IMG/VR virus record: IMGVR_UViG_2529292734_000012
Length of the DNA: 11,547 nt
Reading direction: 5' to 3' (one strand)
DNA from: a virus
Lineage: Duplodnaviria > Heunggongvirae > Uroviricota > Caudoviricetes
The notes beneath the pieces are model-generated. The model was not told the origin of the DNA. It did no database searches and saw nothing but the letters and a program-made list of their open reading frames with translations. Below are positions 1,782 to 11,547 of this stretch, piece by piece. Each line of letters begins with the position of its first letter. Position 1 is the first letter of the stretch. A program made the translations under genes and the position numbers.

Positions 1782-3023
1782 ATGGCACGAAAAACCACCC
1801 CACTAACTATTACGGAGATCAAAAACGCACGACCAGGGGAAAAGGAATATACCCTGCAGGATGGCGGAGGATTATTTCTTCTGGTGAAGCCCTCCGGATC
1901 AAAAATCTGGCGTTTTACGTACTACCGCCCGGCAGATAAAAAACGGACTATTATCAGCCTTGGATCGCTAAATGATGTTTCCCTGTCTGATGCCAGAGAG
2001 CGACGGAATGAATACAGGTCACTCATAGCAAAGGGAACTGACCCACAGGACTACGAACGCCGGAAACGTGAAGCAGAGAGCAGGAAAAAGGGCAACACGT
2101 TCGAAAAAGTTGCCTTGGACTGGTACGAGATGAAAAAAGGCCAGAATCTGGCTTACAACACGATTAAGGATATCTGGCGATCCCTGGAAAAATACGTATT
2201 CCCGTACATCGGAAACACGCCAATAGATACCCTCACCGCTCGCCGCTTTGTTGAGATACTCACACCCATTAAAGCACGCGGCAACCTGGAAACTCTGAAA
2301 CGCGTTTTACAACGCATCAATGAAGTGATGGATTTTGCTGCCAACAGTGGGCTGATTGACATCAACACCGCCGCGAACGTCCGCAAGGCATTCCCTTCCC
2401 CCACTAAAAAGCATATGCCAACCATCCGACCGGAACAGCTACCGCAGCTAATGCACGATTTATCGGTCGCCAGCATAGAACGGCAAACCAGATTGCTAAT
2501 CGAGTGGCAACTGCTGACCGTAGCACGCCCAGCCGAAGCAGCCGCCGCACGCTGGGAAGAAATAGATCTCGATGCCGAAACATGGACGATTCCAGCCGGA
2601 CGCATGAAGATGCGCCGTGACCATGTGATCCCTCTTTGCGGTCAGGCGATGGCTGTACTGGAAACAATGAAGCCAATCAGCGCACACAGGGAACATGTTT
2701 TTCCCAGCCTTAAAAATCCAATACTGCCAATGAGCAGCCAGACCGCTAACGCTGCATTGCGCCGGATGGGATACGCTGGTGTGCTGGTGTCTCACGGATT
2801 ACGCGCCATATTCAGTACAGCAGCGAACGAGGAAGGATTCGAGCCGGACGTAATCGAGGCCGCACTCGCACACGTGGACACGAACGAGGTAAGGCGAGCA
2901 TATAACCGAAGTAACTACCTGGAAAAACGTGTAGTACTTATGCGCTGGTGGGGTGAATTTGTGGAAGCCGCAGCAACCGGAGTGACCATAGCCAGTGGTA
3001 AAAGGGGTATCCGTGCGGTGTAA
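1782..3023 (+). CDS. int: Tyrosine site-specific integrase, P4-like family (413 aa)
   Basis: Located about 200 bp downstream of a tRNA gene. N-terminal arm-binding-like region (GLFLLVKPSGSKIWRFTYY). C-terminal catalytic motifs HGLRAIFST (H-x-x-R) and RAYNRSNY (catalytic Tyr region). Confidence 0.9.
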   Translation: MARKTTPLTITEIKNARPGEKEYTLQDGGGLFLLVKPSGSKIWRFTYYRPADKKRTIISLGSLNDVSLSDARERRNEYRSLIAKGTDPQDYERRKREAESRKKGNTFEKVALDWYEMKKGQNLAYNTIKDIWRSLEKYVFPYIGNTPIDTLTARRFVEILTPIKARGNLETLKRVLQRINEVMDFAANSGLIDINTAANVRKAFPSPTKKHMPTIRPEQLPQLMHDLSVASIERQTRLLIEWQLLTVARPAEAAAARWEEIDLDAETWTIPAGRMKMRRDHVIPLCGQAMAVLETMKPISAHREHVFPSLKNPILPMSSQTANAALRRMGYAGVLVSHGLRAIFSTAANEEGFEPDVIEAALAHVDTNEVRRAYNRSNYLEKRVVLMRWWGEFVEAAATGVTIASGKRGIRAV

Positions 3024-3449: not shown

Positions 3450-3484
3450 GTGAGTACCGTTTTAAAACGGTGAGTACTGTTTTT
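3450..3484. promoter_or_regulatory. Direct repeat GTGAGTAC(C/T)GTTTT x2 flanking a perfect 16-bp palindrome ACCGTTTTAAAACGGT, upstream of the AlpA-like gene
   Basis: Copies at 3450-3463 and 3470-3483; palindrome at 3456-3471. Candidate operator or activator site. Confidence 0.45.
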
Positions 3485-3548: not shown

Positions 3549-3755
3549 ATGGAAGTAATCAGAAAAATTCTTACCCGTCAGGAAGTAAAAAATATTCTGC
3601 GCATCAAGGCAGACAGTTCGCTACAGGACATGATCAACGCCGGAAAATTCCCGAAAGGCTTCAAAATCGGTCTGCGCCGTGTTGGCTGGTATGAAGATGA
3701 GGTGCAGGCCTGGTTGAAAGAACGCGAGGAAGAAGCGCGCGGAACGGCTGCGTAA
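3549..3755 (+). CDS. alpA: AlpA-family phage transcriptional regulator / excisionase-like HTH protein (68 aa)
   Basis: Short MerR-like HTH protein (LTRQEVKNILRIKADSSLQDMINAGKFPKGFKIGLRRVGWYEDEVQAWL) with the conserved Trp-containing C-terminus typical of AlpA/Vis proteins. GAGGT RBS. Position just after the integrase as in P4-like and PICI elements. Confidence 0.75.
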   Translation: MEVIRKILTRQEVKNILRIKADSSLQDMINAGKFPKGFKIGLRRVGWYEDEVQAWLKEREEEARGTAA

Positions 3756-5856: not shown

Positions 5857-6156
5857 ATGAAACTTAAATATTCTGGCTTAACTGCCAGTGGCAACACTCA
5901 CCCTAAATTTACGCGCGGCGATATTTACCGCGACCAGTACGGCGGCACGGTAATGATTAAGGGCGTGGAAGAACGGCGCGTAACCTACCGCCGTGAAGGT
6001 TACGAATATGATTGCGTGATGCCTGTTTATCAGTTCCGGCGTGATTTTTCTCTGGTACAGACCGCGCCGCATAACGTGTCCACCAGCAACGCCAGGGCAC
6101 GGGCAAACATCCAGAAGCTGAAAACCATGATTAACGGATTCAGGGGTAAAAAATGA
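5857..6156 (+). CDS. Hypothetical protein (99 aa), translationally coupled to the replication ATPase
   Basis: GGAGA RBS. Stop overlaps the start of the downstream gene (ATGA at 6153-6156). Confidence 0.5.
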   Translation: MKLKYSGLTASGNTHPKFTRGDIYRDQYGGTVMIKGVEERRVTYRREGYEYDCVMPVYQFRRDFSLVQTAPHNVSTSNARARANIQKLKTMINGFRGKK

Positions 6157-7559
6157 AACTGGCACCGAACGTAAAACTGTTACCGAAAGATAAACACACT
6201 GAGGCGGTTATTTTTGCGGGTGATAATGCTCACTCCTTTGCAGAACATTACATGATTGCACAGGCCAAAAAAGCAGGCGATCCCATCCCTCCGGTTTACC
6301 TGGGCCGTTATCAGTTAAGCGAACTGGACAATTTACAGATTGTTGATGAAGGACGATACAGAGCAAAGGTCATACGCGCCGGAAACCTGGACGATATGCA
6401 GATGCTGACCATTGCCACCAAACTGGCGATCGCAGGTGTCCGGGAAGCGCGGTTACTTTCAGAGAATTTCGAACTACTGGAGGACTGGAGCGAGCAACTA
6501 CCCCGACTTAAAGAAACCTGGGAACGCGGGGAAAGTCTGGTCATGAATGGCGGAAAGCGAAAAATCACACTTCCCATCTCATGGGGTTCTGAGGGATTCG
6601 ACGCGCAGCAAAGCTACGTAATTAAGGGGCTTATTCCGGCTGAATCATTATGCAGCACCTACGGGGCCAGCGGTTCTTATAAATCGTTCCTGGCTATTTC
6701 CTGGTCGTGTCATGTTGCCACAGGTATAGCATGGGGAGGCCGCAGGGTAAGTAAGGGCGCGGTTATCTATATCGCTGGCGAAGGCAGTATGGGCGTAAAA
6801 CGCCGCGTTAAGGCGTGGGAGATAACCCACGACAAGGTGGTTACGGATTTGTGCATCGTTAACGCGCCTGTCTTCCCTGCATCGCCTGACTATGTGGAGC
6901 AGGTTATCAGGACCGCCGGATTAGTGCAAGACAGAACGGGCGAAAGGGTGCGGATGATTGTCATTGACACACTGGCCCGTTGCTTTGGTGGTCATGATGA
7001 AAATGACTCCCGCGACATGGGGGCGTTTATCCAGGGGTGTGACGCGATAAAGCAGGCCACGGGGGCCACGGTTCTGGTTGTGCATCATTCCGGCAAGGAT
7101 GAGACGAAAGGGGCGCGGGGTTCCAGTGCATTCCGTGCGGCGCTTGATGCTGAGTTCCGAATCAGTCGGGAACATTCAGAGGCTACGGCGCTGGTTGCAG
7201 CATGTACGAAGATGAAGGACGCGGAGGAGCCAAAAGAAAGCGCCTACGACCTTAAGAGCGTGGAGGTATTTACGGATCCTGAGGGTGAAGAAATCGTGTC
7301 CATGGTGGTGATTGACGTTCCCCGCGCCCCTGCTGAACTGGAGCGCATAGAGGAGGCCGGGAACAAGACGGAAAATCACACGGCTTTATGGGGTTGTATC
7401 CGGTCACGTATACAGCATGGTGATAAATGCACGATCCCGCTGCTACGTGATGACATGAAAAAGCTGGGATATGACACAAAACACCTTAAACGATGGTTAG
7501 CCAAACTGGAAAAAGACGGCGTGATTTGCGTCGATGGGGATGATGTTCACCCACTGTAA
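6153..7559 (+). CDS. Replication initiator/helicase-like P-loop ATPase (RepA/AAA_25-like RecA-fold), 468 aa
   Basis: Deviant Walker A GASGSYKS, Walker B-like MIVIDTLARCF, and VLVVHHSGKDETKGARGSSAF typical of RepA/AAA_25-type ATPases. Followed immediately by an iteron array. Confidence 0.75.
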   Translation: MKLAPNVKLLPKDKHTEAVIFAGDNAHSFAEHYMIAQAKKAGDPIPPVYLGRYQLSELDNLQIVDEGRYRAKVIRAGNLDDMQMLTIATKLAIAGVREARLLSENFELLEDWSEQLPRLKETWERGESLVMNGGKRKITLPISWGSEGFDAQQSYVIKGLIPAESLCSTYGASGSYKSFLAISWSCHVATGIAWGGRRVSKGAVIYIAGEGSMGVKRRVKAWEITHDKVVTDLCIVNAPVFPASPDYVEQVIRTAGLVQDRTGERVRMIVIDTLARCFGGHDENDSRDMGAFIQGCDAIKQATGATVLVVHHSGKDETKGARGSSAFRAALDAEFRISREHSEATALVAACTKMKDAEEPKESAYDLKSVEVFTDPEGEEIVSMVVIDVPRAPAELERIEEAGNKTENHTALWGCIRSRIQHGDKCTIPLLRDDMKKLGYDTKHLKRWLAKLEKDGVICVDGDDVHPL

Positions 7560-7760
7560 AAAGTGGGCGTTAAAAGTGGGAATAGTGGGTAATTTAACTG
7601 GAATTTAACAAAATCGCCCACTTTCCCACGTGTATACATCCCAAAAAGTGGGCACTAAAAAAATTCTTATGAAACAGTACGATATAAAACCACAAAATCC
7701 CAGGTGGGACGAAGTGGGAAACCATGAAAAGTGGGTAGAAAAAGTGGGCACAGGTGGGCG
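7550..7760. repeat. Iteron-type origin of replication: at least 9 direct and 3 inverted copies of (A)AAGTGGG flanking an AT-rich core
   Basis: AGTGGG/GGTGGG at 7562, 7575, 7584, 7647, 7704, 7713, 7730, 7743, 7754; inverted CCCACT/TCCCAC at 7550, 7617, 7624. AT-rich AATTTAAC x2 at 7591-7609. Lies directly 3' of the rep ATPase gene. Confidence 0.65.
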
Positions 7761-7761
7761 C

Positions 7762-8013
7762 ATGACCAGAAAAACCAGAGATAAGACAGCACCAAAATAT
7801 CGCGCATTAGACATGACAGAGCACGCCTTAAAGGTGGCAATCAGAACGATAGACCGCCACGCCGGAGAAGGATACGCGAAAGCACATCCCGAACTGATAA
7901 GCGCATTCATGACCACGACGGCGGCAAATTTTGCCACGCTGACAGAGCGGGAGATTGCCGAAGCGGAACAGGTAACAACAATCAACGTTAAAACCGGAGA
8001 GGTGGAATCATGA
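7762..8013 (+). CDS. Hypothetical protein (83 aa)
   Basis: ATG at 7762 preceded by AGGTGGG. The longer frame from 7630 would run through the iterons and is rejected. Stop overlaps the SSB start (ATGA). Confidence 0.45.
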   Translation: MTRKTRDKTAPKYRALDMTEHALKVAIRTIDRHAGEGYAKAHPELISAFMTTTAANFATLTEREIAEAEQVTTINVKTGEVES

Positions 8014-8432
8014 CAGCACAGATAGCGGCTTACGGGCGGCTGGTGGCTGACCCGCAGTTAAAGACCACTAGCAAAGGGACACAAATGGCGATGGCGAGTA
8101 TGGCGGTTCCCCTGCCGTGCAGCCAGGCAGATGACGGAACGGCGACGATGTGGTTATCTGTCCTGGCGTTTGGCAGACAGGCCGACGCACTGGCAAAACA
8201 CCACAAAGGCGAACTGGTGAGCGTGGCGGGTAACATGCAGGTGAGCCAGTGGACAGGCCAGAACGGGGAAACGCGGCAGGGCTGGCAGGTTATTGCAGAC
8301 AGCGTAATCAGTGCGCGAACGGCGCGACCGGGCGGCAAAAAAGGTCAACAGGGCCAGGCTACTGACGCGCTGAACAGGGCAAAACAACAGGCGGGAAATG
8401 ATGATCCGTACGGGGATAACATACCGTTTTAA
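8010..8432 (+). CDS. ssb: Single-stranded DNA-binding protein (SSB-like, 140 aa)
   Basis: OB-fold-like N-terminal region and an acidic C-terminal tail ending DDPYGDNIPF, resembling the SSB DDDIPF tail. GGAGAGGTGG RBS. Confidence 0.7.
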   Translation: MTAQIAAYGRLVADPQLKTTSKGTQMAMASMAVPLPCSQADDGTATMWLSVLAFGRQADALAKHHKGELVSVAGNMQVSQWTGQNGETRQGWQVIADSVISARTARPGGKKGQQGQATDALNRAKQQAGNDDPYGDNIPF

Positions 8433-8445
8433 GCAACGAGTAACA

Positions 8446-8470
8446 GAGGCCGGAGCAATCCGGCTTTTAT
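8446..8470 (+). terminator. Rho-independent terminator ending the replication module
   Basis: GCCGGA-gcaa-TCCGGC hairpin followed by TTTTAT. Confidence 0.6.
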
Positions 8471-8493
8471 CAGTTGAGTCCGTCACACTACGC

Positions 8494-8519
8494 AAAAAAA
8501 AGGCCGGAATATTCCGACC
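8494..8519 (-). terminator. Rho-independent terminator on the minus strand (faces the + terminator)
   Basis: The minus strand reads GGTCGGA-ATAT-TCCGGCC followed by TTTTTTTT. Confidence 0.55.
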
Positions 8520-8704
8520 CTTTCATCACCAAAGAGAATAATTTATGTCTTTGAACTTGTAACGCTGTACAGAATGACACGTAACGCCGGATAAATAAAC
8601 GAAGATTGAAACTTTGCACACTATTGCATAGCAATGCATAAAGATGCCAAACAAGGCAGATGATAAAATTAACGCGACACTTTTACTAAGTATTAAGAGG
8701 TTAT

Positions 8705-9745
8705 ATGAGTGATTTATATTCGCCAGCCATGTTAATACAGGTTGTTAATGCCGAAGATATTCAATGGCAGATTAATTCTTTATTTATAAACCTGTTTTTT
8801 AAGCGAGTCGTTACATTTGAGACGCGGGATATTGCGCTTGATATTATTGACGATCCAGACATCCCGATGGCTGCATTTTGTTCCCCTATGGTTGGTAGTA
8901 AAGTCTCACGCGATGAAGGCTACGAATCAAAAGTAATTCGCCCTGGCTATATGAAGCCAAAAAGTAGTATCGACCCAAATAAAATAGCCGTTCGTCAACC
9001 AGGCGTATCACCTGAACAATTCAATGCATATTCATCACGCAGTTTCAAAATAAAGCGAGCGTTAGTAAGACAAGCGCAGGCAATTCGTGCGCGTATTGAG
9101 TGGCTTGCTGTTCAGGCGGTTACAACGGGGAAAAATATCATTGAAGGCGATGGAATTGAACGTTATGAACTGGACTGGAATATAAAACCACAAAATATTA
9201 TCACGCAGTCCGGCGGCACGGAGTGGAGCGGTAGAGATTTATCAACATTTGATCCAAACGATGACATCGAAGAGTACGCAGAAATCAGCGAAGGTACTAC
9301 AAATATCATCGTAATGGGCCGCAACGTATGGAAAAAATACCGCGCCTTTAAAGCAGTAAAAGATTGCCTTGATACTCGACGGGGATCTAATTCCGTTCTT
9401 GAAACGGCCCTGAAAAATCTTGGGGATTCTGTAAGCTTCAAGGGTTACGTTGGCGATGTTGCTATTGTGGTATATAGCGGACGTTATACCGACGAGGACG
9501 GCAAAGAAAAATATTTCCTTGATCCTGATTTGATGGTGCTTGGCAACACATCATTACAGGGCATCGTTGCCTACGGTGGCATTCAGGATCCTGAGTTAAT
9601 CAGAATGGGGCTGACTAAAGCCGAACTTGCGCCGAAAAATTACATCGTACCAGGTGATCCGGCTATTGAATATGTGCAGACGCACAGCGCACCGCAACCA
9701 ATACCGGCCCGCATCAATCGTTTTGTTACCGTTCGCATTGGTTAA
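8705..9745 (+). CDS. Phage major capsid protein, lambda gpE family (346 aa)
   Basis: Long collinear similarity to lambda gpE as I recall it: ITQSGGTEWS, FKAVK..LDTRRGSNS.LETA, GDVAIVVYSG, MVLGNT, YGGIQD. Similar length (346 vs 341 aa). AAGAGG RBS. Confidence 0.9.
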   Translation: MSDLYSPAMLIQVVNAEDIQWQINSLFINLFFKRVVTFETRDIALDIIDDPDIPMAAFCSPMVGSKVSRDEGYESKVIRPGYMKPKSSIDPNKIAVRQPGVSPEQFNAYSSRSFKIKRALVRQAQAIRARIEWLAVQAVTTGKNIIEGDGIERYELDWNIKPQNIITQSGGTEWSGRDLSTFDPNDDIEEYAEISEGTTNIIVMGRNVWKKYRAFKAVKDCLDTRRGSNSVLETALKNLGDSVSFKGYVGDVAIVVYSGRYTDEDGKEKYFLDPDLMVLGNTSLQGIVAYGGIQDPELIRMGLTKAELAPKNYIVPGDPAIEYVQTHSAPQPIPARINRFVTVRIG

Positions 9746-9754
9746 GGGGGAGCA

Positions 9755-10096
9755 ATGGCTACTCATTACACTGAACTCATGGCTGGCACTGAAGCACTGG
9801 TTACTACGTTGGGGATATTTTCAGCTAATAAAGGGGTAATTCCTGCATTTACGCCACTGATGCAAGAAGATGCAACTGGTGCACTGGTGGTATGGGATGG
9901 AACGAGCGCAGGCAAAGCTGTTTATGTTTCCGCTGTACAAATCGATACAGCGACAAAAACGCAGGCTCAGGTTTATAAAACCGGCGTCTTAAATGTTGAT
10001 GCTCTGAACTGGCCTGAGTCTGTAACACAACTATCAGCAAAAGTTGCTGCGTTTGTTGGCTCAGGTATTTCTGTTCAGCCGCTGGCACGTGTGTGA
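9755..10096 (+). CDS. Head decoration protein, lambda gpD family (113 aa)
   Basis: AFTPLMQEDATGALVVWDGTSAGKAV...YKTGVLNVDALNWPE...AFVGSGISV parallels lambda gpD ([26 protein letters not shown]...YKSGTFRYEDVLWPE...AFAGTAISIV). Confidence 0.85.
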   Translation: MATHYTELMAGTEALVTTLGIFSANKGVIPAFTPLMQEDATGALVVWDGTSAGKAVYVSAVQIDTATKTQAQVYKTGVLNVDALNWPESVTQLSAKVAAFVGSGISVQPLARV

Positions 10097-10105
10097 GGTA
10101 CGAGA

Positions 10106-10423
10106 ATGATTGAAAGAGATAGTCAGCTACGAGAGCTATTAGATATCGATGACAAAATGAGTTTAAGCGAGCGCCTTGTTGATATGGATCAGGTAGTGGA
10201 GCTTACAACCCTTAGCCGTCGCACATTGCTAAACCTTGAGGCTCGCGGAGAGTTCCCCGAACGCGTACAGGTTACGAAAGGGCGCAAGGCATGGTATTTA
10301 AGCGAGGTTGTTGCGTGGATTAACAACATTCCGCGCGCATCAAATTATTGCCTTGTTCCCACCCCGAAAAACCTGATGCGGCGTTATGCCTCAAGATTGA
10401 ACGCGCCAGGCGTAATGCCCTGA
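10106..10423 (+). CDS. HTH DNA-binding protein (AlpA/MerR-like HTH_17 type), 105 aa
   Basis: VVELTTLSRRTLLNLEARGEFPERVQVTKGRKAWYLSEVVAWI resembles the AlpA/excisionase-type HTH. GAGGT RBS. Lies between the decoration gene and cos. Confidence 0.55.
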   Translation: MIERDSQLRELLDIDDKMSLSERLVDMDQVVELTTLSRRTLLNLEARGEFPERVQVTKGRKAWYLSEVVAWINNIPRASNYCLVPTPKNLMRRYASRLNAPGVMP

Positions 10424-10489
10424 AAGGACGCAATAAGTTGATTGGTTGATGAAATTAGGGCCCGTTCTGGCTGGCGGGTCCTTTCCGGC

Positions 10490-10545
10490 GATCCGGCAGG
10501 CTACGGGGCGGCGACCTTGCGGTTTTTCGCTATTTATGAGCTTTT
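10490..10545. other. Lambda-type cos site (cosN cohesive-end sequence GGGCGGCGACCT at 10506-10517, plus start of cosB)
   Basis: ctACGGGGCGGCGACCTtGCGGtTTTTCGCTATTTATGAg matches the lambda left-end/cosN sequence GGGCGGCGACCTCGCGGGTTTTCGCTATTTATGAAAA (from memory) with a few substitutions. Sits about 130 bp upstream of a Nu1-like gene, as in lambda. Confidence 0.7.
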
Positions 10546-10548
10546 TCA

Positions 10549-10577
10549 GGGTGGTGGTGGTGGTTTTGTTGTTTGTT
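10549..10577. repeat. Short simple-sequence repeat (GGT)5 followed by a T/G-rich (TTG)n-like tract inside the cosB-equivalent region
   Basis: GGGTGGTGGTGGTGGTTTTGTTGTTTGTT. Confidence 0.6.
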
Positions 10578-10649
10578 CTATCTCCATGAATGAAAAGGGA
10601 AGATAACACCAACACACCAACCTGAAACCTTAACTAAGTGGGGATATTG

Positions 10650-11192
10650 ATGAAATCGCACCTGATGAACAAAAAAACTATGGCGCAAAGCTGCCGCGTA
10701 AGTGCGACAGCGTTCGACAAGTGGGGAGTGACTCCCGTTGAGCGTAAAGGCCGTGAGGCGTTTTATGATGTTGCTAGCGTGATAGACAATAGGGTTAACA
10801 ATGCAATTAACCAACTTACAAACGACAAAGGCGAGATTGATGATGATGAACTTTTACGCGTAAGAATCAGATTAATGACGGCCCAGGCGGAAGCGCAGGA
10901 ACTTAAAAACGAGCGCGAACGCGGCGAGGTGATTGATACAAAGTTTTGCATCTACGCGATTTCAAAGCTGGCACAACAAATTTCTTCAATCATGGACAGC
11001 CTCCCGCTCACAATGCAAAGGCGCTTTCCCGATATAAGGCCGTATATGCTGGATGAACTAAAAAGGGAAATAGTCAAAGCATGTAACGCATGTGCAAGAC
11101 TTGACGAAAACCTGCCACAGATACTGGCTGATTACCTGATGGAAACTACCGGAAACGTGCCTGAGAAGTTGCTACAGAACAAAGGCGAGTAA
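10650..11192 (+). CDS. Terminase small subunit, lambda Nu1-like (start uncertain: 10638 GTG, 10650 ATG or 10665 ATG)
   Basis: LMTAQAEAQELKNERERGEVIDTKFCIYAISKLAQQISSIMDSLPLTMQRRFPDI parallels lambda Nu1 LTRAQADAQELKNARDSAEVVETAFCTFVLSRIAGEIASILDGLPLSVQRRFPEL. The N-terminal DNA-binding region is more divergent. Confidence 0.8.
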   Translation: MKSHLMNKKTMAQSCRVSATAFDKWGVTPVERKGREAFYDVASVIDNRVNNAINQLTNDKGEIDDDELLRVRIRLMTAQAEAQELKNERERGEVIDTKFCIYAISKLAQQISSIMDSLPLTMQRRFPDIRPYMLDELKREIVKACNACARLDENLPQILADYLMETTGNVPEKLLQNKGE

Positions 11193-11265: not shown

Positions 11266-11547
11266 ATGACTGAAGCCGAACTACTGGGATTAATCCGCCG
11301 CGTCGTCGGAATCAGCCAGCAGCATGACGAACAGGCCACACAGCCGGACAGCGTGACCGCTGAAAATTATGTGCGTGTTGTTGCTGAGGTGATGCGCCGT
11401 GATGGTATTGAGCTTAACGGCGTGGATATGCGCAACATACGAACAAGAGTCCTTGAGTTGCTGGCATACCGTCGCCGTTCTCAACAACGGAGGGAGAGCG
11501 CGAAAAATACTTACCAGTGGAAGAAGCCGGAACGGTTGCGGCGGTAG
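11266..11547 (+). CDS. Hypothetical protein (93 aa), Arg-rich C-terminus; stop codon is the last three bases of the window
   Basis: ATG preceded by GAGGG. Occupies the position where lambda has gene A but shows no resemblance to gpA. Confidence 0.4.
   Translation: MTEAELLGLIRRVVGISQQHDEQATQPDSVTAENYVRVVAEVMRRDGIELNGVDMRNIRTRVLELLAYRRRSQQRRESAKNTYQWKKPERLRR

Follow-up and report, generated by a model that had tools for sequence, protein, structure and literature searches.

The stretch of DNA that we analysed, hereafter called the window, is 11,547 nucleotides long and carries what, judging from its gene content and order, is an EcCICFT073-like, cos-type Gram-negative PICI at tRNA-Pro. The 3' part of yejM (52-1422) and the tRNA-Pro(ggg) gene (1497-1573), the only feature recognised by Rfam, precede the insertion point, and the layout of the island that follows is the same as in EcCICFT073. 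The hallmarks of a cos-type PICI were all found, namely int and alpA at the left end, a replication gene and then an iteron origin, co-oriented genes, cos, a size of about 10 kb and a specific att site. The integrase gene (int, 1782-3023) is followed on the plus strand by the canonical alpA (3549-3755; PF05930, 36.2 bits), the first AlpA-family gene of the island, which holds the slot directly after int that belongs to the PICI master regulator; the alpA-like gene that an earlier note had placed beside int is therefore real. The small ORFs after alpA include a DUF4222 gene, and further on lies an AAA_25 RepA-like replication gene (rep, 6153-7559). The origin is a field of AAAGTGGG iterons (7545-7760) right after rep, with at least six copies in both orientations around an AT-rich stretch (7585-7612). 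A listed ORF (7630-8013) begins inside the origin, and its RefSeq homologue in a related island is called as only 81 aa. The ssb gene (8010-8432) is followed on the plus strand by an intrinsic terminator (GCCGGAGCAATCCGGC and then TTTTAT, 8449-8470; RNA fold of -15.3 kcal/mol, z -4.5 with respect to shuffles), which divides the replication genes from the capsid operon. Just past it, the hairpin GGCCGGAATATTCCGACC (8490-8523), preceded by A8, is by its sequence a strong terminator for the minus strand (stem and T8); a gene that reads leftward is not apparent, and in relatives the arrangement persists while the stem differs.

The capsid operon lies on the plus strand and consists of capE (8705-9745), coding for a major capsid protein of the lambda gpE family (PF03864, 142 bits; phrog_29), decoD (9755-10096), coding for a head decoration protein of the lambda gpD family (PF02924, 60 bits; phrog_49), and, after a gap of 9 nt, the gene studied here, HTH2 (10106-10423; ATG start, 105 aa). 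Alignment with lambda cos placed cosQ (GGGTCCT) at 10476-10482 and cosN at 10506-10517, both on the plus strand. The 12-nt cohesive-end sequence GGGCGGCGACCT is identical to that of lambda, and the whole stretch from cosQ to cosN is nearly so. The cos that the earlier note had assumed downstream of HTH2 is thus real and lambda-like, about 50 nt past the end of the gene in the window, and the placement of a second HTH gene in the late module, between the decoration gene and cos, proved correct. To the right of cosN the resemblance ends, with an island-specific cosB region (10518-10649, plus strand) that is unlike lambda cosB and contains GGTGGTGGTGGTGG (10550-10563) and two copies of ACACCAAC (10606-10621). 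It is followed by a terminase small subunit gene (TerS, 10650-11192, plus strand, with an alternative GTG at 10638), coding for a full-length Nu1 homologue (PF07471, 86 bits). The last gene of the island is orf93 (11266-11547, plus strand), a conserved ORF of 93 aa (phrog_1561). A near-identical island in E. coli GTEN_23 stops after orf93 and is followed by yejO. Without a match in Pfam, NCBIfam or PDB, orf93 is conserved at the right end of islands of the EcCICFT073 type as well as of the window type.

The reading of HTH2 as an AlpA/excisionase-type HTH gene, for which the earlier note had proposed HMM classification as a check, is well supported. HTH2 matches PF05930 (Phage_AlpA) above the cut-off (E 7e-8, 32.6 bits, cut-off 21), with residues 23-72 spanning profile positions 2-51 of 51; this domain is also precomputed on HTH2 homologues. 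It matches PHROG 2790, labelled 'excisionase and transcriptional regulator', with an E value of 8e-35. Its only solved homologue in the PDB is 8c3t ('Structure of the GIsul2 transposon excisionase'), found with an E value of 4e-10 with the single sequence and 3e-13 with a profile, and 44% identical over 52 aligned columns that correspond to the winged-helix core. Homology to a characterised excisionase is therefore present. RppC chains, TorI and lambda Xis were not retrieved from the PDB by the HTH2 profile, even at an E value of 10, and NCBIfam has no family for HTH2, alpA, TerS or orf93. The AlphaFold model, the mean pLDDT of which is only 60, has the strand, helix-turn-helix, wing and helix in the expected order. 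When this low-confidence model was used with Foldseek, the best match was again 8c3t (TM 0.71 on target, E 2e-3), and none reached an E value of 1e-3; among the weak, non-significant fold neighbours were BldC, several Xis/Rdf chains, TerS DNA-binding domains and the RppC-TerS complex, with an E value of 0.78 for 6hn7. The protein is predicted to consist of an N-terminal helix, a winged helix-turn-helix at residues ~23-80 and a C-terminal tail. With respect to the canonical AlpA of the same island, to which it is 24% identical, HTH2 has an extra N-terminal helix and a conserved basic C-terminal helix. These sequence comparisons make HTH2 a paralogue, specific to satellites, within the AlpA/excisionase winged-helix family.

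The copy of HTH2 in the window is frameshifted. At 10362-10365 (plus strand) it has a run of four C, where all near-identical relatives have five (27 near-identical E. coli genomes and the IMG/VR copy L089, 99.96% identical over 9.77 kb). This one-base deletion shifts the frame after residue ~88, so that the last 17 residues (89-105) are out of frame, the stop at 10423 is premature, and a conserved 26-residue tail is replaced, with loss of the conserved sequence PxKPDAALCLKIERxRRNAxxGxxxLIG. The intact frame would end at a TGA at 10447-10449, 26 nt upstream of cosQ. The differences between the window and L089 amount to one substitution (2698) and three indels of a single base (8494, 10362-10365 and ~10599, the last in cosB). 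Since all three indels sit in homopolymer runs, the frameshift is likely a sequencing or assembly error or a very recent slip. The allele is absent from the complete E. coli genomes of our collection, where the best match is 99.7% identical. The window's copy, deprived of the conserved C-terminal helix, may be defective, or else its sequence may be wrong.

Other truncated or frameshifted copies of HTH2 exist in the databases (P0091, P0099 and P0004), and because several database copies, that of the window included, are frameshifted, the gene is not indispensable for carriage of the island. Such damage could mean that HTH2 is a decaying or dispensable remnant in this element. We regard this as extremely improbable, considering that the gene is under purifying selection (dN/dS of 0.07-0.17 in unsaturated pairs), that its C-terminal tail is kept across genera, and that the ORF is intact in all of about 75 re-fetched loci (the sample comprised 73 loci from a 10-kb re-fetch, L001 and four genome loci). 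In these loci the ORF codes for 114-147 aa; the intact relatives of the window's copy have 114-127 aa, with forms of 114 aa (e.g. WP_000572593) and 127 aa. In E. coli AST85 it is capE that is annotated as frameshifted (L167, 2496-3523), with HTH2, TerS and orf93 intact. Decay strikes different genes of the capsid module in different strains, since AST85 has a broken capE, while P0091 and P0099 have a truncated HTH2.

The earlier note had called a second HTH gene of this type unusual, which holds for its position but not for its frequency: HTH2 was found at 80% coverage or more in 396 of the 5426 complete E. coli genomes, and the window-type capE likewise in 396. Homologues were found only in Enterobacteriaceae (Escherichia, Citrobacter, Enterobacter, Klebsiella, Salmonella, Kluyvera, Cedecea, Buttiauxella, Scandinavium and others). 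A tblastn search of 50,697 phage genomes gave no match, and HTH2 was thus not captured from a known phage. The gene order capE-decoD-HTH2 is kept in 84/84 related loci and also in more distant relatives, at 48-55% identity. In two lineages (Cedecea and a metagenomic one) a strong terminator lies directly 3' of HTH2; the hairpin found in the window between HTH2 and cosQ folds no better than shuffles (z -0.77) and was not called a terminator. We conclude that capE-decoD-HTH2 is an autonomous operon, with HTH2 as third and last gene and cos next. Many of the relatives are inserted in a prophage capsid gene, the 3' part of which follows them; these are helper-embedded PICIs, matching those described in PMC10111431.

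HTH2 is constant across these islands, while much of what surrounds the capsid operon is not. It is at least 75% identical across related islands, with a nearly invariant recognition helix. The canonical AlpA, the gene of which is present beside int in the islands with HTH2, falls into six clusters that are 28-70% identical and differ in their recognition helices, and integrase and replication gene types also vary. The same applies to the sequences on the other side of cosQ. An exact GGGTCCT lies within ~55 nt of the HTH2 stop in ~80 of 85 sequences, the distance being 26 nt in almost every locus of the E. coli type and ranging over 33-53 nt in other genera, and the spacer is unconserved between genera and devoid of repeats. 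At least four variants of cosN occur in related loci, with overhangs that include GGGCGGCGACCT, GGGCGTCAGGCG, GGGCGGAAGGCG and GGGCGGCAGACG. What lies to the right of cosN is a mosaic, made of an island-type cosB with the window-type TerS, a lambda-type cosB with a Nu1 that is 72% identical to that of lambda, or no TerS at all; loci of this last kind carry cargo instead, e.g. a TIR-domain gene. A recombination breakpoint lies at cosN, where the left module capE-decoD-HTH2-cosQ is joined to varied right sides (window, 10518-11192; L056, L060, L073; L059; L168). In L059, a relative without TerS, a gene for a TIR_2 and DUF3298 protein (6944-8086, minus strand) lies past cos, before the end of the island. 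The window-type TerS and orf93 are also found behind an EcCICFT073-type capsid module, in which the third gene is c1501-like (137 aa), and the third gene therefore tracks the capsid type, not the packaging-specificity type. In the sequences compared, these combinations show HTH2 to be independent both of the TerS/cosB type and of the alpA type.

This mosaic bears directly on two of the three roles that the earlier note had offered, those of a cos-binding accessory factor and of a part of the packaging-redirection machinery. As a packaging accessory, HTH2 would bind near cosQ/cosN, or bind the terminase, and help cos cleavage to start or to end on the small genome of the island. It does always end just upstream of cosQ, its MerR/Xis-like fold class is common to the DNA-binding domains of Nu1 and Rpp (PMC6739421), and TerS domains and the RppC-TerS complex are among the weak fold neighbours of its model. 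Nonetheless, we consider this role very unlikely. Adjacency to cosQ is expected of any last gene in a right-end module, the spacer before cosQ is of the unconserved kind just described, and the same HTH2 goes with four or more cosN variants and with cosB and TerS that are island-type, lambda-type or absent. Conversely, the window-type TerS and orf93 also occur with the c1501-type gene, which is unrelated to HTH2, and the cos region contains no candidate operator of the kind described below. Redirection is poorly supported as well, because the island has a full-length Nu1 homologue and a divergent cosB of its own, which suffice to explain packaging specificity.

In SaPIs, TerS recruits the helper TerL directly. 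By analogy, the TerS of the island may do likewise, instead of heterodimerising with the helper TerS. Over 179 aa it shares 37% identity with lambda Nu1, with the greatest similarity in the C-terminal part, which in lambda Nu1 binds gpA (PMC6739421).

A candidate for the site at which HTH2 might act was found upstream of capE. Between 8614 and 8649 (plus strand), the window contains direct hexamer repeats at a 10-nt phase: TTGCAC (8614), TTGCAT (8624), ATGCAT (8634) and a degenerate ATGCCA (8644), the family consensus being TTRYAY in 3-4 copies. They are followed by an extended -10 element, TGATAAAAT (8661-8669, plus strand), of a predicted capE promoter with no recognisable -35, so that the hexamers are centred at about -60, -50, -40 and -30 from the predicted start. 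A scan for phased triplets gave one array per locus, 85-101 nt upstream of capE, in 83/83 related loci. When divergent loci are aligned, TGnTAnnAT proves conserved 23-25 nt past the last strong hexamer, and both elements are kept where the flanks cannot be aligned, down to 48% HTH2 identity. In 1.28 Mb of sequence, which took in the whole of lambda, 50 kb of CFT073 and helper flanks, all matches to the phased triplet lay before capE; shuffled sequence gave 3. The array is absent from the two HTH2-less capsid modules available as controls (EcCICFT073 and E. coli LTC201, n = 2), of which LTC201 has the same TerS and orf93 as the window island. From its position, with the proximal strong hexamer near -40, the array is what a class-II activator site would be, in a promoter predicted to be unable to work alone.

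Other identities of the array were tried and rejected. The first two hexamers fit a lambda CII site (TTGC-N6-TTGC), but their centre is near -55 and not astride the -35, and the hexamers of other lineages (TTATAC or TTGTAC) also count against it. A sigma-54 promoter (GG-N10-GC) was dismissed, as there is no GG and the spacing is too short by one base. The array is not a replication origin either, this being the AAAGTGGG field at 7545-7760, and it is constant while rep types vary. A joint change of hexamer type and recognition helix looked promising over three types and was weakened by L164 (a 48% relative), which mixes TTATAC and TTGCAY. The sequence upstream of alpA is of another kind: two direct repeats GTGAGTACYGTTTT, at 3450 and 3470 and thus 20 nt apart, enclose a perfect palindrome ACCGTTTTAAAACGGT (3456-3471). 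This region (3450-3483) is likely the operator of the alpA promoter, distinct from the capE array, from whose hexamers its repeats differ.

MerR-like winged helices of the Xis and BldC types occupy phased direct repeats in a head-to-tail arrangement. We propose that HTH2 is a dedicated regulator, probably an activator, of the capE-decoD-HTH2 operon, acting through the phased hexamers. Several copies of the protein would bind the 3-4 TTRYAY hexamers head to tail, overlapping the missing -35 of the capE promoter; HTH2 would thereby govern the transcription of its own operon, probably by activation. The proposal is tentative, and we give it somewhat less than an even chance. It agrees with the late activator of the earlier note, the one of its three roles that the comparative evidence favours, in that HTH2 is inseparable from capE-decoD and from a phased-repeat promoter that has no -35. 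A precedent within the family is the AlpA of EcCICFT073, which activates a PICI promoter (PMC6092414). Regulation by AlpA-type proteins would then be two-tiered in the island, with the canonical AlpA serving induction and the early genes, and HTH2 the capsid genes. Since HTH2 would be an activator encoded by the operon that it activates, an external trigger would be needed; speculatively, this could be read-through from the AlpA-driven early genes or, in embedded copies, late transcription of the helper. The co-occurrence of HTH2 and the array is strict. It is co-occurrence within one linked module, for which physical linkage alone could be sufficient, and the true binder of the array could be a helper-phage or host factor instead of HTH2.

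A regulator so strictly linked to the capsid and decoration genes of the island might also be directed against the helper, binding a helper capsid or late promoter in the manner of PLE CapR and thereby favouring the island's own capsid and decoration proteins. A satellite repressor of a helper capsid gene is on record, as cited in PMC10111431. Such interference has, in our judgement, a low probability, as lambda, the lambda-like prophage region of CFT073 and ~10 kb of helper late genes beside embedded relatives all lacked a phased array.

The family to which HTH2 belongs raises another possibility, that it is a recombination directionality factor (excisionase), acting on the island or, like AlpA_1 of EcCIMP1, on the helper prophage. 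Its closest solved relative is an excisionase, the label of PHROG 2790 includes this function, AlpA is an excision factor in PICMI (PMC10803314), and the second AlpA of EcCIMP1 replaces the helper Xis (PMC11773190); besides, many relatives sit in a prophage capsid gene, where excision of the helper prophage could matter. An excisionase gene is expected beside its own integrase, with sites in an att arm. HTH2, however, lies within the late structural operon, 6.3-7.1 kb from int, in islands every one of which already has a canonical alpA beside int, and it remains constant while integrase and alpA types vary widely. No phased hexamers are present on the attL side or in the cos region. Scattered single hexamers occur in L001 over the 1.2 kb past orf93, where attR was not located, but none is phased. 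Together with the failure of the HTH2 profile to reach TorI and lambda Xis, this makes an excisionase role unlikely, although it stays a serious rival of the proposed one. The GIsul2 excisionase itself (8c3t) has 73 residues and acts with the integrase at the island ends, whereas HTH2 has 114-127 aa and is encoded far from int.

Comparison with known satellite proteins places HTH2 beside several of them without equating it to any. The AlpA of EcCICFT073 (PMC6092414) is, like HTH2, a small winged-helix protein of the PF05930 family from the same class of satellites. Canonical AlpA genes are variable and stand beside int, whereas HTH2 is constant and belongs to a capsid operon next to cos, with a candidate operator unlike the repeats at the alpA promoter. 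A parallel in arrangement is AlpA_1 of EcCIMP1 (PMC11773190), also a second AlpA-family gene in an E. coli PICI, located at the far end from int. It is dispensable for excision of the PICI and substitutes for the helper Xis (PMC11773190). As far as the descriptions can be compared, AlpA_1 is a TorI-type, Xis-like protein whose gene is oriented oppositely, in an island that has neither capsid nor terminase genes, whereas HTH2 is co-oriented within the capsid operon. The Rpp proteins (RppA/B/C; PMC6739421) are likewise small winged-helix proteins encoded beside cos in cos-type E. coli PICIs. They lie to the right of cos and match their own cosB, whereas HTH2 lies to the left and has no fixed cosB partner, nor a match to RppC in the PDB at E values up to 10. 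In the window island it is the full-length Nu1-type TerS that occupies the Rpp position; TerS as an RppA homologue was considered and dropped, as there is no homology. The antitermination of the Pseudomonas AlpA type was also rejected as a model: that protein, with residues numbered beyond 140, has a Q-like eight-helix fold and a C-terminal HTH (PMC9371919), and is not a small Phage_AlpA winged helix.

In EcCICFT073, the position of HTH2 is taken by c1501, which is also the third gene after those for capsid and decoration and directly precedes cos1/rpp or TerS. The two proteins are unrelated in sequence; there is no BLAST alignment between them, c1501 has no Pfam match, and HTH2 as a homologue of this same-slot gene was accordingly dropped. 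A tetA marker inserted in c1501 did not abolish transfer, and no phenotype was found for c1499 and c1500, the EcCICFT073 homologues of the capsid and decoration genes (PMC6092414).

In the published view, typical E. coli PICIs encode one AlpA (PMC11773190). Our literature searches, which included the RefSeq accessions of the module, returned no paper describing HTH2. The PF05930 family and PICIs as a kind of satellite are already known. What is new with respect to the literature searched is a conserved AlpA paralogue that has additional helices at its termini, the invariable location of its gene as the last of the capsid operon, abutting cosQ, and the association of this gene with a specific phased-repeat promoter. 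The module is frequent, being present in ~7% of the complete genomes of E. coli and also in several further Enterobacteriaceae, and it often lies inside helper prophages, so that it bears on the regulation between satellite and helper and on PICIs engineered as delivery vehicles. A regulator dedicated to these genes, together with its predicted operator, would offer an experimental handle on the timing and purpose of capsid and decoration gene expression in PICIs. It would also divide the annotated 'AlpA family' into functionally distinct subfamilies within one element, extending the observation made on EcCIMP1.

A broader scheme, which we put forward as possible but doubtful, is that many enterobacterial PICIs run a two-tier AlpA cascade, with cassette exchange at cos. 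On sensing the helper, the variable AlpA would initiate excision and replication, and the conserved HTH2-type paralogue would be a self-reinforcing late switch, giving the satellite capsid and decoration genes a late promoter independent of the helper. The unit operator-capE-decoD-HTH2-cosQ would be portable and swapped as a cassette through recombination at cos. If so, these satellites would have built a phage-like early/late programme out of one small winged-helix fold used twice.

The capsid modules with c1501 have a different promoter region, without the phased array. In EcCICFT073-type modules (L168, 1705-2130; L002, 5200-5470), a palindrome ATTGCA-N5-TGCAAT abuts a consensus TATAAT, and LTC201 carries an extra cos-like site (cosQ and GGGGCGGGAGGCG) between ssb and the capsid module.
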